Sequence record: NZ_CP014093.1 | Reading direction: 5' to 3' (one strand) | Source: a plasmid | Length of the DNA: 64,000 bases | Shown here: piece after piece, positions 7,899-63,469 of the stretch | Layout: every line of letters starts with the position of its first letter | Position numbering within the stretch: position 1 is the first letter of the stretch | Translations under genes and position numbers: made by a program | Notes under the pieces: generated by a model | The model's input: only the letters and a program-made list of their open reading frames with translations | Told to the model about the DNA's origin: nothing | The model's database searches: none

Positions 7899-7966
7899 GT
7901 CTTACAAACGCTTTTGACTTAACTCATTGAGTTAGCCCCGCAATAAACGGGGCTTTCTCTCCCGAT

Positions 7967-13499: not shown

Positions 13500-13509
13500 T
13501 CACAACCAA

Positions 13510-13531: not shown

Positions 13532-13546
13532 ACCGGAGACAATCAA

Positions 13547-16021: not shown

Positions 16022-16078
16022 TTCTTGGCATATATTGCCTATACAACCTTTATAGACACACAAAAACGCCAGATTTAA

Positions 16079-16447: not shown

Positions 16448-16468
16448 AAGTTTTCGCATGCGAGAACT

Positions 16469-18155: not shown

Positions 18156-18158
18156 TAA

Positions 18159-18398: not shown

Positions 18399-18498
18399 AT
18401 CAATGCCTCTCGATTGTTGTCACTGGCAACAGGCACACACTATACGTTGCCAGTAGCAACAGCACAAGAAAAAAAAGTAACAAACAGAACCGATTGCA

Positions 18499-18571
18499 CA
18501 AGTTTTCGCATGCGAGAACATTAGATAAATTGTGAGATTGATTCCATGTGTTTTCGCATGCGAAAACTTTT
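18499..18571. repeat. 2 copies of the 22-bp palindrome in the par promoter region
   Basis: 18499-18520 and 18550-18571. Confidence 0.9.
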
Positions 18572-18699
18572 TGACAATTCTATTACTTAACTAGGTTACA
18601 AAGAGCAGCGTCAACAGGCATAAGAAGGGAAAAGCACCTAGTTGCATAATTCATTGTTTTTAATAAAAAAATATTGAAAAACCCGTTGAATATGAAAAT

Positions 18700-18826
18700 T
18701 ATTTCATATAAATTAAATTACAGATAGGCGGCAACAAAACTATTAGGGGTAGGATTGATTGCATCAAAGCTTATCTGTTCAACGTGCAATCCCCGCCATT
18801 TGTTCAGTGGCGGGGTTTATTTTTTC
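18700..18826 (+). ncRNA. candidate small RNA ending at a strong intrinsic terminator
   Basis: Noncoding AT-rich stretch ending in CCCCGCCA-tttgttcag-TGGCGGGG plus TTTATTTTTT (18791-18826). Confidence 0.25.
18790..18826 (+). terminator. rho-independent terminator
   Basis: 8-bp GC stem plus U-tract. Confidence 0.6.
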
Positions 18827-18832
18827 TATCTC

Positions 18833-18856
18833 AAAAGTTTTCGCATGCGAAAACTT
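18833..18856. repeat. 22-bp palindrome copy
   Basis: AAAAGTTTTCGCATGCGAAAACTT. Confidence 0.9.
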
Positions 18857-19292
18857 AACGCATCGATTTGCTGTTAACACTCCACGCTTCGAGATTTACG
18901 TCCTCGATAGAATATTCAAATTCTTCATCATCGACGTAGTAGGTATGTAGGTTTGCTTGCCAGTAGCCTTTATCAACTTGCTCTTGCTGGTACGCCCACG
19001 CAGCACACAACAAAATCGCAGAGTCTTCGAAATTGAAGTGTTGCTCTGTGATCACTTCTGAATCGCTGCCAAGGTCATAACCATGCTTGGCCATGAGCGA
19101 TTTAACCGCCCACCAATAAGCGCCATAGTGACGGTACATGAGCGGATTGGCTTTAAGTGTTTTGTAAATGCCATCTACTTGAGCTTGGATAAATGCTTCT
19201 TTGCTTTGCGCTGTTTCTAGCGCCTCATCGAGTAAGGGCTGTAGATCTTCAACGGTAGGCAATTTCACTTGGGTAATCATTTTTGTCTCCAA
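18855..19292 (-). CDS. acidic hypothetical protein (145 aa) immediately downstream of the DarB-like gene
   Basis: ORF rich in Asp/Glu with aromatic residues. Confidence 0.35.
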   Translation of the reverse strand: METKMITQVKLPTVEDLQPLLDEALETAQSKEAFIQAQVDGIYKTLKANPLMYRHYGAYWWAVKSLMAKHGYDLGSDSEVITEQHFNFEDSAILLCAAWAYQQEQVDKGYWQANLHTYYVDDEEFEYSIEDVNLEAWSVNSKSMR

Positions 19293-19333
19293 AAAGTTTT
19301 CGCATGCGAAAACTTATCGCATGCGAAAATTTG
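19291..19333. repeat. 1.5 copies of the 22-bp palindrome
   Basis: Read directly. Confidence 0.9.
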
Positions 19334-19335: not shown

Positions 19336-22300
19336 TTAGGCAGCTTCGGCCATTGTGTTGTGAATGGTTAATAGCGATTTCGCTAGCAATTCCAAATCCG
19401 CTTTAGCAGAGATAAACCACCAGCCGCCATTAAATTCACTGCTTGCGTTTGATGCGAAGTCAGCGCCGTACTCGGCCTTAGCTTCCTTGTCACCAGCGAA
19501 CATCACTTTAAGCGAACCTTTAAGGCCATTGTTGTCCATCAAACCAATGCGCTCGTATGGCTCTACAACAATCTCTTTTCGGTTGCGACCGCGCTTAGGC
19601 TTCCAGCTAATTGGTGAAGTCACCATTTTAACGTCGATGCCAATGCCTGACATTAGTTCGCTAAACTTCTCGATGCTCTCTACGTTAATGGCAGAGATAT
19701 TATCGATTTTCACTTTCTGCGTTTCGGTCACTTTAACCTCGGCCTTTTCCGGCTTATCCGCATTTAGGTACTTCTCGATAAATTCCTCACGCTGTGCGCT
19801 GCGATAAGTGAATAGCGAACCATACGCACCTTTCATGCGATTCAATGACCAGTCATCCGAGAAGATTAGGCCATCACCGGATAGGAACTCACGTTCGCCA
19901 ATAGCGTGTAGGTCAGCGCATACCTTAAGCATGGTTTCTTGTGAGTTTTCGCCGTAAATCGCATCGACCTTTTTCAGCAAGTGAGTATCGGTCGTTGGCT
20001 TGTATTGCGTCATCCAGCACGCGATCTGTGATAGACGTTTTGCACGGTCAGGGTCGTTGGCCACCAGCTTAGTGAAGTCAGCGAATAGCTTATCTTCCAA
20101 CTCTGTGCGGTATTCGCTCGAACGTTCGGTCAGAATATCGGTGTAACGAGTGTACTCACGAGCCGATAGGCGGCGCGCTTCGTGTGCGTTGGTGTAACCT
20201 GTCCATTTCAAATTGCTTAGATGGTTATCTAGCTCTTTGAGGAACGTGATAGACGTTTTGTAAATCGTCTCCGCTTTGAGTAGTGCCTCTTGATAAAGCT
20301 CAGGGTATTTTTCCTCGAATGCTTTGATCTCAAGTGTCACCAGTTCAACGACTTCCTGTTCGCTCACTTGGTTGCCGTTTTCCATCGCCTGTTTGTCCCA
20401 ATCGCTACCGATAAAGAAACTTAGAATGTCGTGTTCCAACATCACGCGACCTTTATCTTCCAATTGCTTGGTCACTTGGTCGAGTAGGGCTTTCGCGGTC
20501 GCTTTATCGCTCGCATCTGGATAAATCAGCGTTTGGTCTGGTTCAACATCCAATCCCCACGGAGTAGAGAATGAGCCGTCAGCATTACGCACCAAACAAC
20601 GGCGGCTATTACCGTAGGCTTTCATTTTCTTCTCTGCGACCAGTTCAAAGAACGTCTCACGGTCAAACGTATGAGCGACTTCACTTAGTGGTACACCTTG
20701 GAGCGCTTTTGCTTCTAGTGCTGCTCTATCCTGATTCACTGGCGCAATTTCAATGATGCGCTCAACAGGTAGATCGACATAGTTGCGTGACGCTGGTTCG
20801 CCGTCCATTTCAGTAATAAAGCCGTCCACCGTGCCAGATTTACGGTCGAAGTTGGTGATCATGATTGTTGCTTTTGAGTCGTACTCGGCGCTCCAAGAAC
20901 GGCTCTTAACTTCGGCTTTGTAGGTGTAGCCATTACGAACAATCACACCGTTGCGAACAATGTATAACTCTGGATGAGTTAGGAAGTCAGGGTAATCCTT
21001 TAACACACCGTCATTGATGGCCAGCTCCATTGCTGGTTTCAATTTCTTGATGGTATCGCTCGCTTTGTCGCGGTTTTTGATCGCTGCCTCATAGGTTTTG
21101 ATTTGGCTTTCTAGCGCAAACAGTCTGCCTTTGGTGCGTTGGTAGTTTTTGTGCTGCCAACTGCCGCGCTTCTCGCCCTCTGCACGTAGGCGATCTTCTT
21201 CCACCTCTTTGCGTAGTGGCTCTAACTTCTCGCGTAGTTCGGCCAGCTCGCCCTCAACCGCACTCACATCCAAAGCAAGCATTTGGGTGGCTTTGATGTA
21301 CTTGCTAACGTTAATACTTGCTAGTCGGCGTTCCTCTAATTTGCGCTTGCGCTCAGCTTGACGCTTAGCCGCTTCGATACGGGCTTTCGCTTCTTCTGGA
21401 TTTGCTGCCAGCATGATTGCAGTTTCGTCGGCTGCGTCTGCATCGGCGTTCGCAATGTACTTTTCATCACCTTTGAACATTGTCTCAATCCAAGTGGCTT
21501 TGCGTTGGATTGTGGCCAAGCGGAAATCATCGAATGAGCCTTTCGACGTGTAGTAGTGAACGTTCACGCTGTTTTGTTTAGAGCCAACACGCGCGCCACG
21601 GCCATTACGCTGTGTGATACTCATTGGAGTCCAAGGTAGCGTTAAGTGGTGAATATCGGTTGTGCCATGATGCAAGTTGATGCCGACTTCGCCTTTTTTA
21701 TTGAGGATCATGAATTTGTATTTCGAGGTGTTGTAAGCATTGGCCATTGCTTCCAAACCCGCTTCCTCATCGTCCTCAGTCGCTTTAGAGCCTTTCTTAC
21801 CCGCAACGGTATCGCTGTTCAAAATACCGATTTCAGACAGCTTACAACCAACAAAATCCGCAATGATTCGCGCGACTTTCTTGTGCTGTGTTTTTTCTTC
21901 GGTAAAGACAAGCTGCTTACCGCCAGCCAGATAAATCTCGCGCGCGTTTTCAAGGAACTTGGCGTACTTAGGGGAGACAGGGTGCGTAAATTTCAACTTG
22001 GCCTTGTCACAAATGTTTGTGAATCGGTCATCAAGTTGCTGGTGGAGCTGAACCACGCAGTGATCGCCCTCGACCTTAACGCTCTTATCAACCTTAACTT
22101 GGATTTTGCTTAGCTTAACCGTGCCGTCTGGTGCCACATCCTCAAAAGCGACCGTGACGGTATTTGGTAGCTTAGATACTGCCGCCTCTACCTCTTTCTT
22201 GCTGTCCTTGGCGAATCGGTAGGTAACACGCTCATAGTACAAATCAAGGTCTGTACTTACCTTGTCCATTTTACGGATTAGGCCGAAAACCGTGTCGTTA

Positions 22301-25300
22301 GGGTATTGCTCGACAATCTCTTGGTTTTCGTCTTTGTCTGGATTACTGATTGCGTCAGCGCGCTGGCGTAGTTCCTCATATAGCGCTTCCTGTTCGCTAT
22401 TCATTTGGACAACGCTTTGCTGGCTAATCAGGTCAGGAATGTGAACGTTGGCACCAACGGATTTAGCATCCTCGATCGTCATGTAGCGGTTAACGATGTT
22501 TCGAAGTGCGTCTAGGTTTTGGAATCCGAGTAGGGCTTCACGCTGTTCAACTTCGCCCGAAATCTTAGTAACCAGCGCTTCGCCAGTCTTACCAAACATG
22601 CGGATAAAGTCGTCGCTGTCAAAAATCCCCATCTTGGCAAACGTGTCTGCCGGAATGATGTGGGACAGCATATTGAACATATCAACAGGGCTGTTTACGG
22701 TTGGCGTAGCTGTTAGGAAGTAAACGCCTCGACCGTCATTGCGAGCCTTAATGACGTTGTTCTTAAGCTGCATATCGATAGCGCGATCGGCTTGCGCTTG
22801 GCTAGGCAAGAATGCCAGATTGTTTCGGTATGAGCCGCCCTTGTACGAGTTACGGAAATCATGCGCCTCATCGACCATAACCGAATCGAATAGCAAGTCC
22901 TCAAAGTACGGTAGTTCTTCGTTTTTGGCCGTACCATCGTCAGCATATTTCGCTTCAAAGCGCGCGTTCTTCGCTTGCTCTGTGTGGCTTTCCGCTTCCT
23001 TAACTAGCTTGCTTGAACCAGCAATCAAACCAGCATCGCGCATTTCAAGCACGTTGGCCGAAATCGTGTCCGGCTTCAATGGAATGCGGTTGTACACGTC
23101 TTTTGTCATTACCACGATGCGAGCGGTTGACTGTGTAAGCTGGTGGAGCTGTTCTGCTACGCGCTTGCCGTTTGTGTCTACGGTCAGTTTGGCGCGCAAG
23201 ATAGGATCGCCTTTCTTGTCTAACTTCGGTTCGCCCGTTTCATCTAATACCGGTTCCCGAATGATTTTTCCTTCATCGTCTTTGTGAACTTCAAGGCCGA
23301 TAAATACCTTGTCAGATAGATTGCTTTCACCAAAGAACAGGTCGGACTCATAGAACCAGTTCTCTAACACGGATTTAGGAACAACGATGGCCACACGGTT
23401 AGCGCGTTTGGTTTCTAGGTTGTGCTGCACGAGGCCAAGGCCAGTGAGCGTTTTACCCAAGCCAGTACCAAAGGCAATAATGCCGTTACCGTCTGCACTG
23501 TGACGGCGAATCGTTGAGTTTTGGTAAGGTAGGAACTCAATCGCACCAGATACGCCATTTAGCGTTAGTGGTGAGTCATCAAACTCCGGCTTAATCCAAC
23601 CGTTAAACGTATTGTTGTAAACCTGTTCCAAGTATTCTGAATGGTCAGATGATGCAATCCATGTAGAAAACTCATCATCGAGGCGGCGCATTTGTTCACG
23701 GATAAGTGATTTATCTTCGTTCTTACTACCGCCACGAACCGCACCATAGTTGATGTACGATTCAATTTGACGCTCAAATCGCTCATCGCTGTTCGCTGCT
23801 TTACCTTTCACGCCATTACGAGTTAGGCCATCAATCCATTCGCCATCACGCCAACGGTAGCCAGTAAGGTATTGGCCGGATTCGCTTTGTACGAAATCCT
23901 CAAAGCCGTCCTTATCCTCGGTAAAGTCGCCCAAGATAAATTCCGTGTAGCCACGGTCATGCAGGAACTCAAGCATGATGTTTTTAGGAATCCACTTATC
24001 GGTAAGCTTCATCTTCACATCGGCAATCGAGATCTTGTTTCGCTTAGATTCGATGGCTTGAATTTGGCGCATGATGTTAGCTTTCACGGTATCGCTGGTG
24101 GTCGATACTAATTGTGCGGTCAGCTGATCCATGCGCTTACCGACTAGGCCAGTCGTCGCTTTATGGAATGCCGTCACCGTGCCGTCAGGGTTTACGGCTA
24201 CCTCATCCATGTTCGCTAGATAATCAAGCAACTGCTCATCGCTCATCGCATCGATACCGCTTGCGGTGTAATACTTGCGAACGTCATCCAGTGTCAGTGT
24301 GGTTATGCCTAGTTCACGGTCGCATAGATGGAACACGTCACCAATGCGAGACGAACTGTATTGAACGGTCAGCTCACGCTTAAGGTCGCCTTTGAGTAGG
24401 TCAGATAGTTTGCCCTTAGAATCGATCGATGAGTGGTAGTAATTCCATGCAGAGACGTACTTCTCGCTTAAGTTGCTTAGCGCTTTCTTCGATACCTTAG
24501 AACCGCCCATTAATGTGTTCAGCTCTAACACTTCGCCGCTTAACTTCACGCGATATTGTTCGGTCTGGAAGTCCTCCGCGCCCATTGCCATGTTTATCAA
24601 GTCGCTATTGGATGTAGTTCGGCTACCAGCAACCAGCGTTGCAAGTGTTTGAACTTTCATGCCAAGTAGAATGCCTTTGTAAGCGTGTTCTTGGCTCGCT
24701 TTTGGCAGCTTGGCAATCTCGCGCATTAGGGCTTTAAAGTCGTCATGACACAAGTAACCGTAATCTTCGAAAAGCTTGAGCGCTTGGCTGGCCGATAGCT
24801 TAAGCATCGATTCAGTAGAGTAGGTGATAGAACCGATCTCATCGGTGTTATCTACGCCATAGGTCGCCTTACTGATAACGCCTGTTTTCGCATTGCTTTC
24901 AGATAGCTCCCATTCGCCATCAATCATTTCGTACTGCTGGCCATTGCGGAAAATCGTGTCTCCATCGGAGTATTTCGCGCTCACTGGCTCACTAACCGCT
25001 TCATCGAGTAACATCCAGTCAATGCGACTGTCAAAGCGGCGCATTAGCGACTCTTTAATATCATCGTTAGAACGGTTGCCACGCTTCACGACTTTGCGCG
25101 CAAACTTACCTACGCCCTCAACAGTCTGTTCGCCGTTGATGAATTTCTTACCCTCGCGCTCGAACCACTTACCTTTGAGCCAAGTGTCCCAAAGTACGTT
25201 AGATTCAATCAGCGTGTCGCGGTCGGCGCTATCAATCAGTGCTTTCGCTTGGTCGCTGTGTTTGCGCCAGATAACAAGGTCAGTCACTACGCCCGTATCA

Positions 25301-26055
25301 GAGAACGTGCCCGTTGGTAGTCGGTGCGCGCCCAAAAACTCCGCTTTAAGCGCGAGTTGTGTACGCCACTTCTCAAGGTTTTTCGCATCACAAATACGAG
25401 TTGGCAGCACTAGGGCAATCAAGCCACCAGCTTTCGCTTTATCGATAGAACGAGAAACGAAATACTGATCAGCGTACTTAATGTCTTTGTACGCTTTGTC
25501 TTTCATCGCGCTAGCGTCTCGAACACCATAAGGCGGGTTGCCGATCACTAGGTCAAAGTCGCCAATGCCAGGATTAGTTGCTACCGCTTCGAATGCAGAT
25601 TGGATTACATGGTCTTCGGGGTGAAGAATTTGGTTAATGGCCGCCGAGGTCTGATCCATTTCTACGGATGTAGTCAGGGTGCCTTTAGGTTTGGTTTCGC
25701 TAAATACTCCCACACCCGAACTTGGTTCAAGTACGCTACCGCCAGTAAAACCATAGGAACGAACTGCATCCCAAGTCGCGCTCGCCAGCCATTTAGGCGT
25801 GTAGTATTCGTTGGTAGAGCCACCGATACCGCCAAAACCTGTGTAGTCGCGCAGAGCTGCCTTATCTTCGGGTGAAACGTTGGAGTAGTCGCCGTTGTAC
25901 TTGGCGAGAATATCTTTGGCTAGTTGGTTAGCCTTAAGGCGCTGGTGGCCTTTTGGAGTGTCGCTAATATCGACAGCGAGCAAGGCTTCAAACTGGCGTA
26001 CCAGTTCATCGATTGTTGTCGCCTGTTCAATACTGCGGGTTAAATCAGTGTTCAT
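19336..26055 (-). CDS. giant methyltransferase-helicase fusion (2239 aa), DarB-like anti-restriction candidate
   Basis: N-terminal AdoMet motif 'VLEPSSGVGVF' and 'LVIGNPPYG' (N6-adenine methyltransferase motif IV). Central 'IIAFGTGLGKTLTG' Walker A and 'MVDEAHDFRN' DEAH box (SNF2/DEAD helicase). Confidence 0.8.
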   Translation of the reverse strand: MNTDLTRSIEQATTIDELVRQFEALLAVDISDTPKGHQRLKANQLAKDILAKYNGDYSNVSPEDKAALRDYTGFGGIGGSTNEYYTPKWLASATWDAVRSYGFTGGSVLEPSSGVGVFSETKPKGTLTTSVEMDQTSAAINQILHPEDHVIQSAFEAVATNPGIGDFDLVIGNPPYGVRDASAMKDKAYKDIKYADQYFVSRSIDKAKAGGLIALVLPTRICDAKNLEKWRTQLALKAEFLGAHRLPTGTFSDTGVVTDLVIWRKHSDQAKALIDSADRDTLIESNVLWDTWLKGKWFEREGKKFINGEQTVEGVGKFARKVVKRGNRSNDDIKESLMRRFDSRIDWMLLDEAVSEPVSAKYSDGDTIFRNGQQYEMIDGEWELSESNAKTGVISKATYGVDNTDEIGSITYSTESMLKLSASQALKLFEDYGYLCHDDFKALMREIAKLPKASQEHAYKGILLGMKVQTLATLVAGSRTTSNSDLINMAMGAEDFQTEQYRVKLSGEVLELNTLMGGSKVSKKALSNLSEKYVSAWNYYHSSIDSKGKLSDLLKGDLKRELTVQYSSSRIGDVFHLCDRELGITTLTLDDVRKYYTASGIDAMSDEQLLDYLANMDEVAVNPDGTVTAFHKATTGLVGKRMDQLTAQLVSTTSDTVKANIMRQIQAIESKRNKISIADVKMKLTDKWIPKNIMLEFLHDRGYTEFILGDFTEDKDGFEDFVQSESGQYLTGYRWRDGEWIDGLTRNGVKGKAANSDERFERQIESYINYGAVRGGSKNEDKSLIREQMRRLDDEFSTWIASSDHSEYLEQVYNNTFNGWIKPEFDDSPLTLNGVSGAIEFLPYQNSTIRRHSADGNGIIAFGTGLGKTLTGLGLVQHNLETKRANRVAIVVPKSVLENWFYESDLFFGESNLSDKVFIGLEVHKDDEGKIIREPVLDETGEPKLDKKGDPILRAKLTVDTNGKRVAEQLHQLTQSTARIVVMTKDVYNRIPLKPDTISANVLEMRDAGLIAGSSKLVKEAESHTEQAKNARFEAKYADDGTAKNEELPYFEDLLFDSVMVDEAHDFRNSYKGGSYRNNLAFLPSQAQADRAIDMQLKNNVIKARNDGRGVYFLTATPTVNSPVDMFNMLSHIIPADTFAKMGIFDSDDFIRMFGKTGEALVTKISGEVEQREALLGFQNLDALRNIVNRYMTIEDAKSVGANVHIPDLISQQSVVQMNSEQEALYEELRQRADAISNPDKDENQEIVEQYPNDTVFGLIRKMDKVSTDLDLYYERVTYRFAKDSKKEVEAAVSKLPNTVTVAFEDVAPDGTVKLSKIQVKVDKSVKVEGDHCVVQLHQQLDDRFTNICDKAKLKFTHPVSPKYAKFLENAREIYLAGGKQLVFTEEKTQHKKVARIIADFVGCKLSEIGILNSDTVAGKKGSKATEDDEEAGLEAMANAYNTSKYKFMILNKKGEVGINLHHGTTDIHHLTLPWTPMSITQRNGRGARVGSKQNSVNVHYYTSKGSFDDFRLATIQRKATWIETMFKGDEKYIANADADAADETAIMLAANPEEAKARIEAAKRQAERKRKLEERRLASINVSKYIKATQMLALDVSAVEGELAELREKLEPLRKEVEEDRLRAEGEKRGSWQHKNYQRTKGRLFALESQIKTYEAAIKNRDKASDTIKKLKPAMELAINDGVLKDYPDFLTHPELYIVRNGVIVRNGYTYKAEVKSRSWSAEYDSKATIMITNFDRKSGTVDGFITEMDGEPASRNYVDLPVERIIEIAPVNQDRAALEAKALQGVPLSEVAHTFDRETFFELVAEKKMKAYGNSRRCLVRNADGSFSTPWGLDVEPDQTLIYPDASDKATAKALLDQVTKQLEDKGRVMLEHDILSFFIGSDWDKQAMENGNQVSEQEVVELVTLEIKAFEEKYPELYQEALLKAETIYKTSITFLKELDNHLSNLKWTGYTNAHEARRLSAREYTRYTDILTERSSEYRTELEDKLFADFTKLVANDPDRAKRLSQIACWMTQYKPTTDTHLLKKVDAIYGENSQETMLKVCADLHAIGEREFLSGDGLIFSDDWSLNRMKGAYGSLFTYRSAQREEFIEKYLNADKPEKAEVKVTETQKVKIDNISAINVESIEKFSELMSGIGIDVKMVTSPISWKPKRGRNRKEIVVEPYERIGLMDNNGLKGSLKVMFAGDKEAKAEYGADFASNASSEFNGGWWFISAKADLELLAKSLLTIHNTMAEAA

Positions 26056-48454: not shown

Positions 48455-49082
48455 TGGCTGCTTTCCCTGCGCGTGACTTAGACGAGTTGGAAAAAATAAT
48501 CCGTTTAATGGATGACATTAACCCGCTTATCTCTATGATGATTGAAATGGAGGTTCGTACAGGTTTACGTTATTGCGACATTTCGAAGCTAAAATTCAGC
48601 GATGTGATGATAAATGGCGTGATCCGGTCGTCATTTAGCATTGTTCAATCAAAAGGTTTAAAGGCCGTATGACCCGAGGTAAGAGCGAAAAAGCCGCTAA
48701 AGAGGCCGCTCGAATCACCATTCACGTTAATGCCGAACTGGAAGAACTGATTAAACGTATCTACTTACACAATGGGCATAATGAGTTGATGTTTCAATCT
48801 AATCACCACTTGGCCAAAAAGGGCAATGCGATCAGCATCCAGTATATCAACCGAGCGTATAAGCGCATAGCAATGGAGTTGAGATTGCCATATCAGCTAT
48901 CAACACATTCGATGCGAAAAATGTACGCCATGCTCCTGCTTGAAAAGAAAGCCTCTTTGAAAGTGATTAAGGACGCGCTTGGTCACTCTAGTGTTGCCGT
49001 GACTGACCACTACTTAAGAACGTTCCACGACGAAGCGAAAGAGTACACAACAGGCATTTCATTAAAACCAAAGGCAGAATAG
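48454..49082 (+). pseudogene. tyrosine recombinase/integrase catalytic domain split over two frames
   Basis: 'EMEVRTGLRYCDISKLKFSDV' (Arg box). 'HSMRKMYAMLLLE...LGHSSVAVTDHYLRT' (H-x-x-R...Y catalytic motifs). Frameshift near 48660. Confidence 0.55.
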
Positions 49083-50170: not shown

Positions 50171-51541
50171 TTAGAATTGGCCCATTAAGTATTCTAAAAT
50201 GGTCCTCTTTCCGGTTATTATGTCAACTGATGTTGTCATTCCTGGAATGATTGGTAGATCTTTATCACCGAGATCAGTTTTATCAGTACGTATACGTACT
50301 ACATAAAAGTCGTTACCTTCTTCATCCTGGATTGTGTCTGCACTAATATGTTCTAACTCCCCTTTTAAACCACCGTACTTACTAAAATCATAAGCGGTAA
50401 GCTTGACAATAACAGGTAGCTCAGGACGTAAAAATGCAATATCTTTTGGTGCTATTTTTGCCTCTATCAGTAGAGCGTCTTCGGTTGGCACAATTTCAAC
50501 GATATCCATACCTGGTTGAATAACTCCACCAACTGTATTTATGCTCAACGTTTTAATTTTTCCCGTTACTGGTGAGTAAACCACGGTTCTATTGACTTTA
50601 TCTTCTAAGTTAACTGTAGACTTTACCAAAGAAGATAGTTGATCTTGGGTGCTATTAAGTTTTTCTTGTTGTTCAGATCGGAATTGTAGCGCGACCTCTA
50701 TTCGTTTAAGCATGAACTCTTGAATTAATGACTCTAATACGGGAATTTTAAGCTTGCTAGATGTCATTTCACGCCTGCTATCATTGGCTTGTCGTTGTAA
50801 TTTAAGTAATTCAATGCGTGGAACTATACCTTCGTCAGCTAGAGGTTTGGTAATATCCAGTTCCTTTTTTGCATATTGATAACTCCTACGTAAGTTTTCT
50901 ACTCGTGCTTTTATTTCAATCAAATCCTGTTGTTTCTGTATGACTTGCTGATCAATCACTGATAGCTGGTTGCGTATATTATTTAAGTTTTCTAGATACT
51001 CAGCTTTTTGACGTAGGATTAGTTCAGGTTGAGTTTCTTCTAAAAATGATGGGAACATTAGCTGGTCATAGTTTAGTGTGACATTTTGTCGCCAATCTTT
51101 AATGTCAAAGTCATTGTTAACTTGAACGCTATTTATCGAGGCTGTCAATTGTAATACAGATGCACTCAAGTTAGCGACTTGTTGTTCATGCTCACGAAAA
51201 TCTGAACGAAAGAGCGTGTCATCGATGAGAATTAATGGTTGACCTTTTTCGACTAATTGACCTTCTTTTACTAAAATTTCTTTAATTAACCCACCTTCCA
51301 AGTTTTGTATAACTTGAACCTGTGAGGAAGGAATGACTTTCCCTAAACCGACAATGACTTTATCTATCTCAGAAAAAGATGCCCAACCAACCATCACAAT
51401 TGAAAGACTCACCATTATCCAGAGCAACAAACGAGCACTCCTAGGACTTGTTAGGAGTAAGGCTGCGACCTTGTCATTAACAAACTCTAATTCTTCATCG
51501 TTAAGTTTGTTGTAGTTCTTTTGTTTCATGTTTGCGCTCAT
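50171..51541 (-). CDS. HlyD-family type I secretion membrane-fusion protein (orphan)
   Basis: N-terminal transmembrane segment, long coiled coil, C-terminal 'IIPGMTTSVDIITGKRTILEYLMGQF' HlyD signature. Confidence 0.75.
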   Translation of the reverse strand: MSANMKQKNYNKLNDEELEFVNDKVAALLLTSPRSARLLLWIMVSLSIVMVGWASFSEIDKVIVGLGKVIPSSQVQVIQNLEGGLIKEILVKEGQLVEKGQPLILIDDTLFRSDFREHEQQVANLSASVLQLTASINSVQVNNDFDIKDWRQNVTLNYDQLMFPSFLEETQPELILRQKAEYLENLNNIRNQLSVIDQQVIQKQQDLIEIKARVENLRRSYQYAKKELDITKPLADEGIVPRIELLKLQRQANDSRREMTSSKLKIPVLESLIQEFMLKRIEVALQFRSEQQEKLNSTQDQLSSLVKSTVNLEDKVNRTVVYSPVTGKIKTLSINTVGGVIQPGMDIVEIVPTEDALLIEAKIAPKDIAFLRPELPVIVKLTAYDFSKYGGLKGELEHISADTIQDEEGNDFYVVRIRTDKTDLGDKDLPIIPGMTTSVDIITGKRTILEYLMGQF

Positions 51542-51992: not shown

Positions 51993-52202
51993 ATGTCTAA
52001 TCAAGTAATTGGTACAGTAAAGTGGTTTAATGAAGCTAAAGGCTTCGGTTTCATTTCTCAAAATAACGGCGACGACCTATTCGTTCACTTCCGCAACATC
52101 GTTGGGGATGGATTTAAAAAACTTATTGAAGGCGACAAGGTTTCTTTTACCGTAGGTAAAGGTCCTAAAGGGCTTCAAGCAGAAAATGTAACGACGTTGT
52201 AA
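51993..52202 (+). CDS. cspA: CspA-family cold-shock protein
   Basis: '[33 protein letters not shown]...[18 protein letters not shown]'. Confidence 0.85.
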
Positions 52203-52258
52203 TAGTCTTACAAAACTTAGCTTCCTTATCGCTTGTAATCCAGTGGTAAGGAAGTAGT

Positions 52259-52397
52259 AGCTCTGATCAATAGTTGTTTCAGATAAAAAAGTATAAAGTC
52301 AGTTTTCCCAGCGTCATCCTTAATAAGTTTCTCTGTAAGCTCCCTTCATTCTATATCATAAAATAACGCATGTTCAGTACACCCTAATCATTAAGTA
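52259..52397 (+). repeat. duplicated csp leader, copy 2 (about 85% identical)
   Basis: Aligned by eye to 51835-51992. Confidence 0.7.
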
Positions 52398-52547
52398 AGG
52401 GGCATTGTATGTCTAATAAAATCATTGATTTAATAAATGTATCTAATAATAAAAAAATCAGTAAAAAGAAAAAATCAAATAGTCAAAAATCAAAACTTGA
52501 CCTACTTCAAAGAATAACAAGTGGCCAAAGTGGTGTGGTTTTGGAGG
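52398..52547 (+). CDS. Lys-rich 49-aa ORF behind the duplicated csp leader (degenerate csp N-terminus 'MSNKII')
   Basis: ATG at 52398 in the same position relative to the leader as the cspA start. Confidence 0.25.
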
Positions 52548-53165
52548 TTTTATTTTGAAGAATAATGGTAGAAAGAAAATTTGGTTTAAATTAAGAAATA
52601 AAAATAAAATTTTTGAAAGCCAAACTCATAATTAATTTTTCTTAACGTATTTTATCTTATCAATAGTAACTATTGACTCTGGAGTGGTACGTTAACGAAC
52701 ATCGCCAGTTTTTGAGCCATTTGCTCATCAACAAGACTATTCTAATAGCTCAATCCAAACACCATTGAAAGGCGAAATAGCTCGGTGAAGTAGTCTGCTA
52801 CCTCACTACATTAACCAAATGTCAGGTAACGGATTAAGCTTTACCCGTAGTGCCTTGTGGACACCGGTAAAGAACACAGTAAAACGTTGATAATAACTGA
52901 CTCATTATCCGACTAATCCTAATCTTCTTGAGCAGTTTATTCCATTTCTTGGACGAGACTGAACTTGTCCATTACTTTCTCTAAACGCTCTGTCGAAAAC
53001 CTTGCTCAGATCATCAATCTTGTCGCGCCGTTTTTTCTTGTAGGCGATGTCGCAGCCGGTAATTGGCGGGTTAGTTTCTGTTCTGTAAGAAGTGAAACTA
53101 AATTGACTAGATTCCTGACGAGGCACTATTTCAGTAACTCGGCCCAACCGAACTACTGGAATAAG

Positions 53166-53654
53166 TTATTTAATGTTGATACCTAATCGAACTGATATGC
53201 CTAGAACGTTGGCCAGCCCGATAAGTGACGATAAAGAAGGGTTGTCGCGCGGGTGTAAGGTGTTATCCATACCTTTGGCCTTGGTAACGGTAGCTAAGGC
53301 TTCTGCAATGATCTCGGGCTCGCCAGTGCTTGCCGCTTCATCAATATAGGCTTGGATAGTCTGTTGGTTGGTTAAGTATTCGGATGGCTCTAACTCTTTT
53401 AATTGAGAGGTCACATGATCACTCTCTTTCACAATAAGACCACTCACCTGATTAACTTGCTGTATCGCGGTTTGAACGGCTTCGCCGTATGAGTCAGTTT
53501 CTCGGTCGAAATCGATACGAATATCGCTGCCAGATGCAGATACGGTGCAATCATTGGCACCAACCCCAACGAGCGCATTAGATAGCTCGCAAAGCGTGTC
53601 TGCGTTCATGTCGCCTTGGAACCTGGCCATCAGTGCAAAATCAAACTCTTTCAA
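53166..53654 (-). CDS. HTH antidote-like DNA-binding protein (HigA/addiction-module antidote-like C-terminus)
   Basis: 'HPRDNPSLSSLIGLANVLGISVRLGI'. Confidence 0.5.
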   Translation of the reverse strand: MKEFDFALMARFQGDMNADTLCELSNALVGVGANDCTVSASGSDIRIDFDRETDSYGEAVQTAIQQVNQVSGLIVKESDHVTSQLKELEPSEYLTNQQTIQAYIDEAASTGEPEIIAEALATVTKAKGMDNTLHPRDNPSLSSLIGLANVLGISVRLGINIK

Positions 53655-53727
53655 TCATCAATCCTCTCTTTAAGCAATTAGTGGCATTTTAGCCTTAACC
53701 ATAAGCCACCGTGCTGGTGGCTTATGG

Positions 53728-54462
53728 TTAGCTTCGTAACTCGTTTTCTCGATATTGCTCTATTGATTGCTCCAAATGCTCTGCGTTCTTGGGTGAGCTC
53801 ATCAAGTGATCAGTTTCCGATAGGATTTCTTCCCAATCCGGTTCTTCCAACGTTGGCCACAACATCAAATCATCGATGTCAACGTCCTTAAAACCAATCT
53901 TTGAGTAGTAGCCTTTAAGCGTCTCTACGCTTTCCTCGGAGCGATCTTCTAACGGGAACGCCTTTAGACCAATAATGTCGTAAATCGACGTGAATCGCGC
54001 AATAAAGTCCTCAATTAAGGCTTTAGAATACTTGTTGCCTCGATGCTCTTTCTTCACTTTCAGTTCGTGGATGACAATAAGGCGATCTGGTTCTGGACAG
54101 ACTCCCCAACGCATTTCTACGTTGCGTTCTTCAATGCTTGCTTTTAGCAAATAATTATCACCAAGGACTTGAACAAAGTGATAGATGCTACCGTCCACAT
54201 CCAGTAAATCGTGACAGTTTGTAATGTTTGATGCTCTGGCCAAGTCCACGATGTAGAAATCACAAGTAGCAACTTCGGTTTCAGCTCCACTCTCTTTATC
54301 AAGAGCAAACATGCTTGCCGTCATAACGTTGATACATGACTCAACATCATCTGAATAAGGCGCGGTACTTAAGGCGTAGTTAATGATCATTGTTCTGTTC
54401 CTTATCTGGTGCTGGTGGCTTAATGAGGGTCGATGGCAATTGAAGAGAACTGGCCACACCAT
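53728..54462 (-). CDS. GNAT-family acetyltransferase with acidic C-terminal tail (alternative start at 54390)
   Basis: 'VIHELKVKKEHRGNKYSKALIEDFIARF' (acetyl-CoA motif A). Confidence 0.55.
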   Translation of the reverse strand: MVWPVLFNCHRPSLSHQHQIRNRTMIINYALSTAPYSDDVESCINVMTASMFALDKESGAETEVATCDFYIVDLARASNITNCHDLLDVDGSIYHFVQVLGDNYLLKASIEERNVEMRWGVCPEPDRLIVIHELKVKKEHRGNKYSKALIEDFIARFTSIYDIIGLKAFPLEDRSEESVETLKGYYSKIGFKDVDIDDLMLWPTLEEPDWEEILSETDHLMSSPKNAEHLEQSIEQYRENELRS

Positions 54463-54468
54463 CCTTTG

Positions 54469-56244
54469 TCAAGACGAACCGGACACCCCTGACTTTAACT
54501 CCAAATTACCGCCAAGCCGCTCATGAATTGAGGATATTTTAGATGCGAGCTCAGTTAAAACTCCTAATTTAGCCCCGTAAGGTAATCTTTCTCTTTCATT
54601 CTCGATGCACTCACAAAGCAGGGCTAGAGCGTCAAGCTCTTCCGAAAGAAAATCCTCAATATTGCTAAAGTCATAACGTCGATACATGAAACTAGAAAAA
54701 TCATAAAGCTCCCCGCTTGACCAATTTGTTAACATCTGATCAAAATCTTTCTTCTGGAGGTGTTGTAGGAAAGGTTTGGAGCCGTACTTTTGTTCAGTAG
54801 CTTCGACACAGCTGTGCCAAGACTGCACTAACTGCTCTTTGTAGACTGCCATTTCACTCGCCTGCATACCAGTAGCTTTATCGCATAAAAATTCAGATAT
54901 TACGTTTAGCAAACGACTGTTTTGTACATAGTACCCTATATCTCTACCAAGCATATTCACATACGCTGCTGACTCAAATATGAATTTATCAAAAATTTTC
55001 TTGATATTAGAAACAAACTCGTCGAAATCATATTCTATATATCTGTGTTCTATCATAAAAGAATAGGCACTACAGGCTCTGCACCAATTGACAAAATCCG
55101 TTGGTTTTGGGTTGTCTATGTATTGCTTAAATCTTGACAACCGCTCTGACAACCACAAGTCGTCATGTCTACGAAACTGATAATCCAATATTTCTTGAAT
55201 GTCATCAGTTGCTACAGGCAACTTCATCTCGGTTTCTAAATCTTTAAACCTGTTATCATAGGCTGCTATATATCTTACGTGGCTATCGGTGGTGTGAGGC
55301 CTAAGAGGATGGATTAAACTTCTGAGCAACTCTATCCTTTTATCTTGTTCAGTTTCCCCCTTTGTTTTCCTATGGATGAGTGGATTTTCATGTAGGGCTT
55401 GCAAGACCTCGTCCAAGGAAAATTCATGATGGAAGATAGCGAAGCATGTCGCTAGTGATGTAATAAGATTGTGTTCATCGATTTGTCTGTAGTCCAATTC
55501 ATCCTTTCGAATAAATAGATTACTTATGGCATAAAAACGATCTACAGCGCGCCTAATTATGCGAATATTATCTACCTCATACTTGCGAAGCATGTCTTCA
55601 ATAATTTGCTTCGCCTCATTTGATAAGGTCTTTTCTTCAATATAGATTTGATCGATAACTGACATTAAATCGGTAGGAGTTCGACTTAAGTGCACTATGT
55701 CACTAAACACTTTTTCGATGTCTGCCTTCTTCTCTATCTTTCCCTGATTTCCAATGACAACGATTTTTATATTCTTATTTTCACATAGATTTAGGCATTC
55801 GCCCAATATCTCTGACTTTACATTCTCGTTAGAAAGGCGCTCTAGATCGTCAATGAATAATACTCGATCATTCAACTGATTAAAGTAATGTTGCTTTACA
55901 ATTGAACCAACATTACCAAGCGCTTTCCCTACTCCTCTAGTTCCCTCTAGTGTTTGCATGGCAAAATCGCCTACACCACTATAGCGCTTTGCGAACCACC
56001 CTGTTTGTTCATTACGACTGTACACAAGAGAAAGCAGCCGAGTTTTAAAATCATCCAGATCCGAAACACCGTATAAAGAGAGGTAATGCCCCTTATGTGT
56101 GGCTTTGTACTTATGCGTCAAATAGGGCATCAAGGTCTGCTTTACAAAATACGTTTTACCAACTCCCCAGTGCCCATCTAACAAAACTATGCTTGGAAAG
56201 CTAGATTCTTGGAGCAACTTATAAATACGTTCCTCAATTTTCAT
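54469..56244 (-). CDS. KAP-family P-loop NTPase
   Basis: 'IVLLDGHWGVGKTYFVKQ' (GxWGxGKT KAP Walker A). Start is the Met at 56244 with AAGG Shine-Dalgarno. Confidence 0.7.
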   Translation of the reverse strand: MKIEERIYKLLQESSFPSIVLLDGHWGVGKTYFVKQTLMPYLTHKYKATHKGHYLSLYGVSDLDDFKTRLLSLVYSRNEQTGWFAKRYSGVGDFAMQTLEGTRGVGKALGNVGSIVKQHYFNQLNDRVLFIDDLERLSNENVKSEILGECLNLCENKNIKIVVIGNQGKIEKKADIEKVFSDIVHLSRTPTDLMSVIDQIYIEEKTLSNEAKQIIEDMLRKYEVDNIRIIRRAVDRFYAISNLFIRKDELDYRQIDEHNLITSLATCFAIFHHEFSLDEVLQALHENPLIHRKTKGETEQDKRIELLRSLIHPLRPHTTDSHVRYIAAYDNRFKDLETEMKLPVATDDIQEILDYQFRRHDDLWLSERLSRFKQYIDNPKPTDFVNWCRACSAYSFMIEHRYIEYDFDEFVSNIKKIFDKFIFESAAYVNMLGRDIGYYVQNSRLLNVISEFLCDKATGMQASEMAVYKEQLVQSWHSCVEATEQKYGSKPFLQHLQKKDFDQMLTNWSSGELYDFSSFMYRRYDFSNIEDFLSEELDALALLCECIENERERLPYGAKLGVLTELASKISSIHERLGGNLELKSGVSGSS

Positions 56245-56323
56245 TATCAACCTTGTAAAATTAGAGCTATTCGTAGATCTAACCACAGATAGATAATTCT
56301 AGATATGCAGTTGATAACATTTA

Positions 56324-56674
56324 TCAACTAAATTTCATAATAGATAGAATCGAGCCACCAACATCGTGGGTTTCTTGCGTTTGGCCGCTATCCAAAATCA
56401 AAGAGTGAATAAGCACATCCCAATCAATGCCCTCTTTCTCGATCAAGTAAACCGTATCAGCTAGATAAGTTAAAAATTGATATTGGGAATCAATATCTGT
56501 GTAGCTTTCTTTGGCTTTGTAAGTAATCTCATCAAAATAAGCACAGAGTGAACCCCAAAACTTAACACTGCTACTTGCTGTCGCTTTCATCTCATAAATA
56601 TGATCAACACGTAGCTTGATGTCAGTGAAAAATCGCTTTATCTGGTGGGCGTATGTGCCTCTCTGCATTAGCAC
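56324..56674 (-). CDS. hypothetical protein, first gene of the KAP operon
   Basis: ORF 37 nt upstream of the KAP gene. Confidence 0.35.
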   Translation of the reverse strand: MLMQRGTYAHQIKRFFTDIKLRVDHIYEMKATASSSVKFWGSLCAYFDEITYKAKESYTDIDSQYQFLTYLADTVYLIEKEGIDWDVLIHSLILDSGQTQETHDVGGSILSIMKFS

Positions 56675-56920
56675 TATACCAGGGTTAATTAATGGGTTTT
56701 ACCGAAAAATCCATGAATTAAATTCATTTCTTAAATGGCTCCGATTGAGCGTAATCTAATCCTACCCCAGGATTATGGTAATCCTTTTTATTCCGAACAT
56801 GTAAATTTATATCAATGTATGTTTTTTTGATATTAAGGGCTAAATTAGTTATTGCATATGTTATTTTTGATATGGTAGTCTCACCACCCCATTCCGAACA
56901 CACTTAATTCTTTGTAGAAA

Positions 56921-57626
56921 ATGACCATAAAAACGTTCAATACCAGCAAAGGCACTATTGCCCTGTCTAACCACGGAGCAACAGTATCGATGGCCATTAA
57001 CCGCAACACTGGCGCGGTAGCGAACGTGTGTGTGAGTTGGGTGTTAGGGAGTGCAGATGAGGCGAAAGCCTTTATTGAGGGCGCAGACGAAAAAGCGATA
57101 CGAAATGAAATGCCTCGCTTTTCCATGTGCGCTGATGTGGTTAAACAACTAGACAAGGCGCTGGCCAATGGCAATTCCAAAAAACCAGTTGAGCCTACTC
57201 ATAGAGCTTATGGAAGCTCTACCGCTAGATGGAACGGTCTACGAAATGCCACTACAAGTAGAGTTTATCCCGCACGATGAAATCTACATCGGCTATTTCG
57301 ATACGACCGTCATTGACCGCATGCAAGGGCTAGGAATTATCACGTTACTTGGGGTGCATGATGATGAGCGACAAGCTATCAAACTCAATGAGCGTGACGA
57401 TTTTCTAGCAAGCTGGTCGGCGGGAGTGAGTGAGGCTCGCAATGGCTCAGATCTGCATTATGCAGACTACAACAACAACCAATATGCGTTTACTGCCGGA
57501 TACGAGCACTGGCATAACCGCAACAAAAAGGCGTTAAAGGGAAGACTTACGCATTACTCAACAAGTAGAGAGTATCTATGTCATGGATTTATTGACGAGG
57601 ATACGGGTGAAATTTGGCATCAATAA
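56921..57626 (+). CDS. hypothetical protein (two ORFs joined across an A6 tract at 57179-57184)
   Basis: ORFs 56921..57280 and 57168..57626. Confidence 0.3.
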
Positions 57627-57642
57627 CAAAAGGTAACTAACT

Positions 57643-58176
57643 ATGACTTTGGGTAATCTACTTCTAGCAATTCTTGAGCAGAGAACACAAACAGGCTATG
57701 ACCTAACAAACCGAACAATGCCTGAATCTGGCGCATGGCAAGCCAGCCACCAGCAAGTGTACCGCGAACTTGGTCGCATGACGGAAAAGGGTTTAGTGTC
57801 ACACGAAATTGAAGCGCAAGACGGTAAACCAGACCGCAAGAATTACAGCTTAACTCAAGACGGCGAGCATGTTCTTAACCTTTTACGCAACGAATCTACA
57901 TGCGATGGCCTGTCTATCATTCGTAGTCCTGCATCGGTGATGCTGGAAATCGGCAGCGAGGTTTACTTCAAGTCGTACATTGAAAAACTCAATCAAGAAA
58001 TAACGCAACTTAAAGAGAAGCTGAACGCGCACCAGAAAGAGAAAGGTGTGTTCTGTGACAACTTCACACTGCATGTAGAGCGCGACATTGATATGCGCAA
58101 AGCAGAGCTTAAGTTTGCCGAACGTTCACTATTTATGATCACTTCCTCAAACATTGCTACGGAGAATGCTGCGTGA
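57643..58176 (+). CDS. PadR-family transcriptional regulator
   Basis: 'LGNLLLAILEQRTQTGYDL...QQVYRELGRMTEKGLV...KPDRKNYSLTQDGE'. Confidence 0.6.
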   Translation: MTLGNLLLAILEQRTQTGYDLTNRTMPESGAWQASHQQVYRELGRMTEKGLVSHEIEAQDGKPDRKNYSLTQDGEHVLNLLRNESTCDGLSIIRSPASVMLEIGSEVYFKSYIEKLNQEITQLKEKLNAHQKEKGVFCDNFTLHVERDIDMRKAELKFAERSLFMITSSNIATENAA

Positions 58177-58361
58177 AACCTCGCAAAGCCGTTTATCTTT
58201 TAGTTGGCTCGCCAGCGCTTAAACGAGCCAAAGAGTGTTTAACTCGAAATCAGCCTTGGGACTACGAGGGCAAGCTCATGAAGATCGTCAGTTTGGGGCA
58301 ACGTATGCGTAACGATGACGGCAAGCCATGCCATCGAGTTTTAATTGAGAGTTACTTCTGA
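58173..58361 (+). CDS. hypothetical small protein
   Basis: ORF overlapping the padR stop. Confidence 0.3.
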   Translation: MKPRKAVYLLVGSPALKRAKECLTRNQPWDYEGKLMKIVSLGQRMRNDDGKPCHRVLIESYF

Positions 58362-61961: not shown

Positions 61962-63469
61962 TTAATATATAACATTTGCGATGTTATTTAATTTTCTATC
62001 CAATAAAGCAATGGGGATTGGACGACTTAAATAGAACCCTTGAACTAGCTCACAATCTAACTCTTCTAGAACACACAACTGTTCAAGGGTCTCTACCCCT
62101 TCAGCAACGACTTGAATACCAAATCCCTTTGCGATGTTGACGATGCCGGAAGTGATCGCTCTTGAGCGATAATCAATAGCGATGTTTTTAATGAAGCTTC
62201 GATCTATTTTTATTTCATCGACATCCAACTTGTTGAATATTGCAAATGAGGTATAGCCAACACCGAAGTCATCAATAGAGAACTTTACACCAGATTTCTT
62301 GAGTTCTCTGACTAGACTTGCGCATTGATCAACATCGTTTAACGTTGCTGTCTCTGTGATTTCCAAGCAGAGGTATTGTGCAAAATCAAGATCTTTTTTT
62401 AAGTAATTTTCGATACGATGCATATCTTCAATGCTATTTAGCTCAGTAGCAGAAAGGTTCACTGATACCTCTTGAATGGCTCGTCCTAGAAGCTGAGTTT
62501 CTCTAAGTTGCTTTGATGCTTGCTTGAGGACTAGTTCTGTTAGAGCGCTGCAGAGATTGTTCTCTTCTGCCAGTGTGATAAATACTGCAGGAGATATATC
62601 TCCATATTCGGGGTGTTTCCATCGAGAGAGCACTTCAACTCCAGCGACTCTCTTATCTTTAAGGCAATACTTTGGTTGAAAAACAATCTGTATTTGGTTT
62701 TCTCGTATTGCGTTACGTAAGTCTGAAGTCATCTGCTGTCTCTGGAGCTCATGTTTAGCGAGCTCTTTGTCGTGGTAGCAGACAGTATTTTTCGTGATTT
62801 TTGCTTGAGCAAGTGCATATTTAGCTGACGACATGAGCTGTTTTACACTTTCCCCATCAAATGGATAAAGCGCAACACCAATGGAGCATGTCAAATCAAT
62901 ACCATGACGTTTTGAGTTCTGCTTAAACTGCCTTTGAATAAGTGCTAAGTGCATATCAACTTGACTTTCGCTTTCCATACGAATCAAACAAGCAAATCCA
63001 TCAGAATGCACCCTTGAAGAGAAAAGTGGAGAAACGGTAGAAGAGTTAATCGATTGTGCGATATCTTTTAGAAACAGATTACTCTTTACAAAACCGATTC
63101 GGTCGGAAACGGGCTTAAAATTGTCTATATCGAGAAGAAATAAAACATAATGTTCATCCTTTTTTGTATTACGAAACTTTTGTTCCAAATAGCGAAAAAA
63201 GACGTAGGGGCTATGTAAACCGGTTACATAGTCAATGTCATTGGCTCGTTCAATATACCTGTTGTTCTTTTTTATCAGCCCCATAGCAAGAAAGAGGTGA
63301 TCACAACAAATAGCATTCCTTTTAGTGACTGAACCGAGGTGTATACTTGTTGATTGTTAGATAGGAGCTCTACCGCTTTGTCTGAGAACAATACCCACAT
63401 TGACGCGAATGCAAAGTAGGACAAAACGATCTTAGCGGAGCTGAGAAAGTTTTTTTTCATATAAACCAC
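61962..63469 (-). CDS. membrane-anchored GGDEF(degenerate)-EAL protein, candidate c-di-GMP phosphodiesterase; frameshift at a T6 tract near 63270
   Basis: EAL motifs 'GVEVLSRW' and 'DDFGVGYTS'. GGDEF domain start 'DYVTGL' with degenerate 'HSDGFA'. N-terminal transmembrane segment in the separate ORF 63275..63469. Confidence 0.6.

Follow-up and report, generated by a model that had tools for sequence, protein, structure and literature searches.

A variable cargo bay in a Vibrio alginolyticus phage-plasmid, built of separate cassettes and carrying a KAP NTPase gene

Introduction

Transmembrane helices inside the NTPase domain are typical of the KAP family, yet they are absent from some prokaryotic KAPs. 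Single-gene KAP NTPases of the EF_KAP type, which have uncharacterised C-terminal regions, protect Enterococcus faecalis in a Walker B-dependent way (PMC12632615). Here we analyse a locus with a KAP NTPase gene in a stretch of 64,000 nucleotides (nt) of a plasmid (sequence record NZ_CP014093.1; hereafter, the window). The gene is one of four consecutive minus-strand open reading frames (ORFs), as the ORF listing and the reverse-strand sequence confirm. An earlier note on this DNA had taken the four for one integrated, undescribed defence or addiction system: a gene for a hypothetical protein (gene 1), the KAP gene, a GNAT acetyltransferase gene, and a gene for a protein with a helix-turn-helix (HTH) of antidote type (gene 4). 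The region they occupy, 53.1–56.7 kb, is the variable cargo bay of a family of tailed phage-plasmids of Vibrio alginolyticus (PLSDB rep_cluster_803). In our judgement, it is probable that this bay holds separate cassettes, with the KAP gene as the lone defence-type element and the GNAT gene and gene 4 (parts A and B) as unrelated cargo.

A Cargo Bay between Conserved Flanks

Nine plasmids of V. alginolyticus or Vibrio sp. in PLSDB (93–217 kb, all non-mobilizable) match the flanks of the region and not its centre. In the three examined in detail, all typed rep_cluster_803, the gene content between the conserved flanks differs from plasmid to plasmid. One flank holds tail and baseplate genes, a Ref nuclease, and PadR, and the other a cold-shock gene, HlyD, an integrase fragment, and a C1-like repressor (plasmid annotation and PHROG matches). 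Conserved flanks and differing contents, on replicons with phage structural genes, are the features by which a cargo hotspot is recognised here. The locus had been described as accessory cargo in a variable hotspot of a mobile element, and this holds. It had also been placed in an island with integrase remnants; the fragment is there (48669–49082), but the setting is a phage-plasmid and not a chromosomal island. The fragment is a 137-aa (amino acid) ORF whose similarity to a tyrosine recombinase is confined to the catalytic C-terminal part; its counterpart in sister contigs has 209 aa, so the window form is shorter or truncated. The HlyD-type secretion adaptor is encoded at 50171–51541.

The KAP gene is absent from all nine relatives, and no plasmid in PLSDB has it in full. 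A comparison of the region with a phage collection gave no DNA match and, at the protein level, only distant matches to the N-terminal P-loop. The block of four genes is unchanged on at least ~13 V. alginolyticus contigs; these are near-identical (97–100%) and hence represent one lineage. The bay would be transcribed leftward, from a control region that bears the plasmid-wide GTTCGGAAT motif. No description of this Vibrio phage-plasmid family or of its hotspot was found in the literature searched, PMC7969092 and PMC10879196 not having been read for this family. The hotspot now defined is a source to mine for defence and anti-defence genes.

Exchange of Cassettes

A look-up of the identical GNAT protein leads to two variants of one locus. 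Variant A, the window type, has the order 114-aa gene, KAP, GNAT, 162-aa gene. In variant B (loci L084 and L087), genes of 125 aa, 147 aa, 180 aa (DUF4262), and 139 aa precede the GNAT gene and the 162-aa gene. In blastn comparisons, only 52000–54423 and 56363–58300 of the window have counterparts in L084 and L087 (95–99.5% identity). The difference is exactly 54424–56362, that is, the KAP gene with the last 13 codons of gene 1, in place of which stand the four unrelated small genes, one of them DUF4262, while the 99.5%-identical GNAT gene and gene 4 stay together without KAP.

The other genes are found apart from one another as well. The GNAT gene occurs without KAP in L082, L084, L087, and L098, without an adjacent gene 4 in L081, L082, L097, and L098, and entirely alone in a V. 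parahaemolyticus chromosome. The gene upstream of it is KAP, the 139-aa or DUF4262 gene of the variants, or a 38-aa ORF in L081; in the short contig L098, no A-B follows it, and an EF-hand gene lies downstream. Gene 4, or its A-B equivalent, is found without GNAT or KAP in L089, L090, and L091. In Vibrio sp. T9 (L097; hereafter, T9), where KAP is 95% identical, a 179-aa gene stands between the KAP-GNAT pair and A and B, which are separate there. Beyond this group of plasmids, tblastn (E ≤ 0.01) found no match to genes 1, 3 (GNAT), or 4 in 80 loci around KAP relatives, and tblastn likewise found none of the three in L092–L096, the loci of closer KAP relatives. The segment is a mosaic of independently exchanged cassettes: gene 1, KAP, GNAT, and A-B.

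Gene 1 belongs to the plasmid backbone. Its residues 1–104 are 77–96% identical in all sister plasmids, irrespective of the cargo that follows. Its last 12–13 residues differ from those of the sister plasmids, with the junction at 56362/56363. T9 has a complete gene 1, then a 65-aa gene, then a hairpin, then KAP, which indicates that a deletion of ~306 bp in the window created the short gap between gene 1 and KAP. Judged by these alignments, gene 1 is the backbone leader gene of the hotspot, truncated in the window by that deletion. It has no match in Pfam, PADLOC, NCBIfam, or PHROG.

The cassettes were probably exchanged through homologous recombination at short sequences that they have in common. 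Each of the two junctions of the GNAT cassette falls on GCCACCAGC, and the homology with variant B starts directly 5′ of TAAGCCACCAGCAC. As these GCCACCAGC elements contain Chi, we infer recombination at Chi-bearing junctions. The homology breakpoints at 53703/53704 lie within the hairpin that follows the GNAT gene (Table 1), and this hairpin sits where the GNAT cassette meets the A-B cassette. It is strong (RNA fold −37.4 kcal/mol, z = −6.08), lacks a T-tract, and has a Chi octamer inside; at the equivalent position, sister plasmids have a GCCACCAGC..GCTGGTGGC hairpin and then a T-run.

The four genes might still form the integrated system of the earlier note, since they share one strand with short gaps, remain together as an unchanged block on the contigs counted above, and each represent a type of component known from defence or toxin-antitoxin contexts. 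Several observations make this highly improbable. The contigs with the block amount to one lineage, variant B exchanges precisely KAP and retains GNAT and gene 4, and no relative of KAP has these genes at its side. In addition, a deletion truncated gene 1, which belongs to the backbone, another deletion gave gene 4 its fused form, and the strong hairpin stands between GNAT and gene 4. The earlier note had itself named lack of co-occurrence elsewhere as grounds for giving up the claim, and this is what was found: outside one plasmid lineage, the genes never co-occur, and inside it, they are separable. The proposed check for a conserved KAP-GNAT neighbourhood came out negative, with no gene 1, 3, or 4 in the 80 loci. 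The packing is also looser than it had seemed. The genes do share a strand, but the 37-nt and 6-nt gaps stem from the longest ORFs; with starts supported by homologues, the gaps are 76 nt (gene 1 to KAP), 78 nt (KAP to GNAT), and 73 nt (GNAT to gene 4). The GNAT start, MIINYAL, is found in all homologues, and the cassette junction at 54423/54424 agrees with the supported starts. A scan of 52.8–57.3 kb for sigma-70 promoters and intrinsic terminators found fewer sites than in shuffled sequence and is therefore neutral on a single transcript. Close same-strand spacing on a mobile element was thus misread as a system, and it is the sister plasmids that reveal the cassette-wise exchange.

The KAP NTPase

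The assignment to the KAP P-loop NTPases is sound. Pfam KAP_NTPase (PF07693) matches residues 17–187 with 33.7 bits, against a gathering cut-off of 20 (E = 3e-8), and Walker A (GHWGVGKT, residues 25–32) and Walker B (FIDDLER, 131–137) are invariant in 20 homologues. An AlphaFold2 model built with 20 homologues (pLDDT 84.1) has a P-loop core at residues ~1–190 and an all-alpha region at ~190–592. The protein has no transmembrane segment (highest 19-residue Kyte-Doolittle mean, 0.97); the insert at residues 79–105 is polar and of low pLDDT, and no transmembrane helices are inserted in the NTPase domain.

Matches in the libraries and the genomic context make KAP a credible anti-phage candidate, in keeping with the setting of defence cargo that had been proposed. 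Its best match in the defence library is PADLOC PDC-S49 (E = 1.6e-31), all three profiles of which are matched; the best stretch aligns residues 34–294 with positions 27–286 of 624, in the NTPase half only. Against PifA and QatA in the same library, there was no match at E ≤ 1. The profile phrog_4740 covers the full length. A genome-wide scan gave 23 full-length relatives at 24–39% identity in Vibrio, Pseudoalteromonas, Shewanella, Colwellia, Psychromonas, Marinomonas, Polaribacter, and other genera. Their neighbours vary and include no homologue of gene 1, 3, or 4; relatives at 49–55% identity also lack these genes. In the 23 relatives, in five closer loci, where the neighbours vary as well, and in the swap of KAP alone, one sees a single gene with no conserved partner. 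A 55%-identical relative adjoins Septu PtuA/PtuB (E = 2.7e-128 and 8.9e-74) and a second, PDC-S20/PifA-like KAP, and at another locus, the neighbour is a PDC-S06-like ATPase. The precedent in Enterococcus (PMC12632615) points the same way.

Two of the chromosomal loci deserve separate mention. In V. campbellii (L092, 2326–3912 and 8741–10678), a defence island with a KAP relative, the PifA/PDC-S20-like KAP, Septu PtuA/PtuB, and a recombinase fragment sits at a glutaredoxin/YgjP-like locus. The same locus in another Vibrio (L093) holds KAP only.

By analogy with validated single-gene KAPs and with STAND NTPases, the KAP protein would act as an NTP-driven, STAND-like switch, with its helical C-terminal domain detecting a phage cue, executing the response, or both. 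On this analogy, KAP alone would be the defence-type element of the bay, and of a kind already described (PDC-S49-like, single-gene KAP). What the locus adds is a soluble KAP/STAND-like family, chiefly of marine Gammaproteobacteria, with a well-predicted all-alpha C-terminus, which makes a testable single-gene defence candidate.

Alternatively, none of the cargo is related to defence, and KAP serves the biology of the element itself (partition, replication control, or complex assembly) among neutral hitch-hikers. The closest structural matches of KAP are indeed initiator and transposition AAA+ proteins (TnsC, Cdc6/ORC, MuB, DnaA), half of the tested neighbours of its relatives are not defence genes, and the PDC families are unvalidated. 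However, the structural likeness is confined to the generic NTPase core. Moreover, KAP is dispensable, being absent from all nine PLSDB relatives, and it lies in a cargo hotspot, with relatives in variable chromosomal spots, one of them beside Septu. We regard this alternative as rather unlikely.

Some points weigh against a bay of separate cassettes with KAP as its lone defence-type gene. The Pfam scan and the structural comparison recognised no effector domain in the C-terminal half of KAP. PDC-S49 is a computational candidate, matched by KAP in the N-terminal half of the profile, and no mention of it was found in the literature searched. Five of ten tested neighbours of KAP relatives have no PADLOC match, so that a defence-island context holds for some loci and not for the whole family. 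The tie of the family to phage resistance is drawn by analogy rather than from experiment. Recombination at Chi-bearing junctions is deduced from two junctions. Finally, two plasmid arrangements, that of the window and that of T9, place KAP next to GNAT, and the two genes may be functionally linked within the lineage; the arrangements share a 96.6%-identical block and hence do not count as independent observations. In a weaker variant of the chimera idea discussed below for GNAT, KAP and GNAT would have begun working together in this lineage.

The GNAT Protein and Its Tail

The N-terminal 188 residues of the GNAT protein have a divergent GNAT fold, and the protein is acidic (isoelectric point, pI, 4.5). 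It scores under the Pfam cut-offs, while distant family members pass those of Acetyltransf_1/7. Its family is very small: a set of 1.8 billion proteins yielded 20 representatives. Motif B is kept (YYSKIGF, for YYxxxGF), and the acetyl-CoA loop of motif A is degenerate, with RGNKYS against RGxG[LY][GA] in distant relatives and without the R/Q-x-x-G-x-G/A pattern; hence, catalytic competence is uncertain. By sequence and structure, the protein is no nearer to the tRNA-acetylating toxins AtaT and TacT than to generic GNATs, and the proposal of an AtaT/TacT-type toxin is not upheld.

The acidic tail noted earlier is real. It comprises residues 189–220, is predicted with low confidence, and is missing in the chromosomal V. 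parahaemolyticus homologues (P0040–P0042). Short and weak matches relate it to YefM/Phd antitoxins: Pfam PhdYeFM_antitox (E = 0.003), NCBIfam YefM (E = 0.015), phrog_10078 (E = 2.8e-5), and, in the PDB, residues 41–71 of Staphylococcus aureus YefM (E = 0.03; ETDHLMSSPKNAEHLEQSI against ETLYLQQNPNNAEHLAQSI). Residues 41–81 of YefM wrap around YoeB (PMC7544224). Downstream of the other tail-bearing GNAT (P0039), there is no toxin gene.

A GNAT with a YefM-like tail is a curiosity, and one may ask whether it is a counter-defence factor, an antitoxin mimic whose tail would neutralise a host YoeB-type toxin, or an enzyme that would acetylate a defence protein as AcrVA5 does. Four independent libraries agree in matching the tail to the toxin-wrapping segment of YefM/Phd, and the tail occurs only in mobile-element copies. 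A tblastn search of the window with an approximate E. coli YoeB query found no YoeB-like ORF, so a target would lie elsewhere. Yet all the matches are weak (E from 3e-5 to 0.03) and only ~30 residues long, the tail is modelled with low confidence, the idea presumes a YoeB gene in the host, and a GNAT-YefM chimera has no experimental precedent. This makes the idea unlikely; if it were true, cargo of both kinds, defence and anti-defence, would sit in the bay. We give a similarly low standing to its more specific form, a chimera that docks onto a host YoeB-family or RelE-fold effector and neutralises or acetylates it, which would make GNAT an anti-toxin-antitoxin factor of counter-defence beside a defence gene in one cargo bay.

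Another possibility is that GNAT is a toxin and A-B its antitoxin, forming an addiction pair that stabilises the phage-plasmid, with KAP as an unrelated insertion upstream. Low-copy phage-plasmids often bear addiction modules, such as phd-doc of P1; GNAT and gene 4 are together in variants A and B; and part B comes from an antidote-type family. The distribution of the genes speaks against such a pair: the GNAT gene has no partner in the V. parahaemolyticus chromosome (its 188-aa form stands for 500 sequences clustered at 90% identity), other genes lie between GNAT and A-B in L082 and L097, no A-B follows GNAT in the short contig L098, and A-B occurs without GNAT in L089, L090, and L091. One would also expect a tRNA-binding toxin to be basic, not acidic. 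No DUF1778 or ribbon-helix-helix (RHH) antitoxin was matched in any library scan around GNAT, and the acetyl-CoA loop is degenerate. An addiction pair is for these reasons very unlikely. Under the preferred reading of separate cassettes, GNAT and A-B would most likely be accessory or regulatory cargo, not partners of KAP.

Gene 4, a Fusion of Two Genes

DNA alignment shows that gene 4 arose when two ancestral 82-aa genes, A and B, were fused in frame; the two are separate in L089, L082, and L097. The window lacks 22 bp that are present in L089 and L082 and include the stop codon of A (deletion at ~53429/53430), and this deletion joins A in frame to B. The 162-aa "HTH protein" is therefore a lineage-specific form. 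Locus L091 (3105–3608) has a different deletion, of 7 bp, that gives a 167-aa fusion, and P0047 is a 164-aa A-B form with a third junction; the in-frame fusion arose at least three separate times. Such repetition suggests that the products of A and B act together as one unit.

Part A matches, over residues 1–70, the N-terminus of PADLOC PDC-M06B (E = 1.4e-5) and phrog_2620 (E = 9e-7). The 179-aa gene found upstream of A-B in L089 (4292–4831), L082 (7322–7861), and L097 (7989–8528) has, as tested in L089, a full-length match to PDC-M06B (E = 8e-25), and its N-terminus holds a paralogue of domain A.

Gene 4, which had been read as a protein with an antidote-type HTH, is antidote-like in one half only, part B. 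This part falls under both cut-offs (TIGR02684, E = 2e-9, 37.5 bits against 53.7; PF21716, 25.4 bits against 27), and residues 85–131 align to positions 2–48 of the ~90-position dnstrm_HI1420 profile, leaving the second half unaligned. Its match to the phage repressor family phrog_4268 (E = 7e-15) sets 76 residues on 90 positions, with ~14 missing. We take the missing ~14-position segment to be the helix-turn-helix core of the family, and B may have lost its HTH. Profile searches proposed as a check on the earlier assignments thus put KAP above its Pfam cut-off but the window GNAT and B below theirs. A sequence search against solved structures gave nothing meaningful for gene 4, and library scans gave no RelE/ParE match for its upstream part, A.

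Layout and Repeated Motifs

The coordinates are collected in Table 1. The AT-richness reported for the whole locus is confined to gene 1 and KAP (37–38% GC) and does not extend to GNAT and gene 4 (41–46% GC).

Table 1. Features of the cargo bay (window coordinates)
Feature	Position	Strand	Length	Remarks
Gene 1	56324–56674	minus	116 aa	no known family
KAP gene	54469–56286 (longest ORF); 54469–56247 (from ATG 56247)	minus	605 aa; 592 aa	homologue start MKIEERI
GNAT gene	53728–54462 (longest ORF); 53728–54390 (from ATG 54390)	minus	244 aa; 220 aa	homologue start MIINYAL
Gene 4	53166–53654	minus	162 aa	TTG start
Divergent control region	56675–56920	minus		upstream of cargo operon; two GTTCGGAAT copies
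KAP cassette	54424–56362	minus		sole segment missing from variant-B sister plasmids
GNAT C-terminal tail	53728–53826	minus		~residues 189–220, YefM/Phd-like
Hairpin	53697–53729	minus	15-bp stem	AACCATAAGCCACC AGCAC GGTGGCTTATGGTT; overlaps GNAT stop codon
GCCACCAGC element	54411–54419	minus		contains Chi octamer complement; KAP/GNAT cassette junction
Gene 4 part A	53430–53654	minus		small domain resembling PDC-M06B N-terminus
Gene 4 part B	53166–53414	minus		short relative of dnstrm_HI1420 antidote proteins

Two motifs had been reported upstream of the operon. The one at 56891–56901 is an exact 11-mer GTGTTCGGAAT, but the copy at 56790 reads ATGTTCGGAAT, and their shared core, the 9-mer GTTCGGAAT (56790–56798 and 56891–56899), is not specific to the operon: the window has 16 copies against 0.55 expected (8581, 26225, 29550, 29631, 34255, 37773, 37793, 40326, 41433, 43040, 47067, 47907, 49934, 56790, 56891, and 59158). 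These are mostly intergenic, in AT-rich DNA, usually after G/T-G, and mostly in the orientation of the downstream genes. The motif probably serves the phage-plasmid as a promoter or operator; the scan of the control region showed no sigma-70-like excess. A perfect palindrome, TTGATAA-ATG-TTATCAA (56311–56327), runs over the gene 1 stop codon a short way before the KAP gene, and T9 has a near-identical copy with one mismatch (TTAATAA for TTGATAA). It could be the operator of the KAP cassette.

The commonest 8-mer in the window is the E. coli-type Chi octamer, GCTGGTGG / CCACCAGC, with 38 copies (e.g., 53713 and 54411) against ~1.4 expected; 26 read GCTGGTGG on the plus strand and 12 on the minus strand. 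The excess may reflect RecBCD protection and recombination hotspots of the phage-plasmid. A palindrome of ~22 bp, AAGTTTTCGCATGCGAAAACTT, has 13 intergenic copies at 5004–19318 (e.g., 14257, 14305, 14346, 14387, 18507, 18555, and 19301) and is likely an operator for a dimeric regulator. Elsewhere in the window lie two very large ORFs (8706–13499, 1597 aa; 19336–26055, 2239 aa) and a gene for a GGDEF-EAL protein (61962–63284).

Comparison with Known Systems

Among described families, PDC-S49 is the closest to KAP: both are ~600-aa, single-gene cassettes, and they differ in that the window KAP has a C-terminal domain of its own. With the single-gene KAPs of Enterococcus and gut metagenomes (EF_KAP), and with PifA, Tmn, and QatA, it shares a KAP NTPase followed by ~300–400 residues without a known domain, and carriage on mobile elements. 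In contrast, EF_KAP and Tmn have transmembrane helices and the window KAP has none, and the KAPs of Enterococcus plasmids have ~26% identity to it, in the P-loop region only.

The AtaT-AtaR, TacT-TacA, and KacT pairs (PMC9177977) resemble the locus in the GNAT fold and in the plasmid location beside an antitoxin-like gene. Unlike GNAT/DUF1778 pairs, however, the window has no RHH/DUF1778 partner, its putative partner lies downstream behind a hairpin, and the GNAT is acidic and also found without a partner. Relative to YefM/Phd antitoxins, the GNAT tail resembles α3-α4 of the YoeB-wrapping C-terminal domain in a short and weak match, but the protein lacks the N-terminal DNA-binding domain of Phd/YefM and an adjacent yoeB or doc gene. 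In HI1419/HI1420 (HigB/HigA-like) modules, the antidote family is the one that the B half matches, whereas A is not a RelE/HigB-type toxin but an acidic domain shared with PDC-M06B. The bay as a whole is most like the accessory and defence hotspots of P1-like and other phage-plasmids (PMC7969092, PMC10879196), with which it has in common a conserved phage backbone, a fixed site at which the cargo varies, and exchange through recombination.

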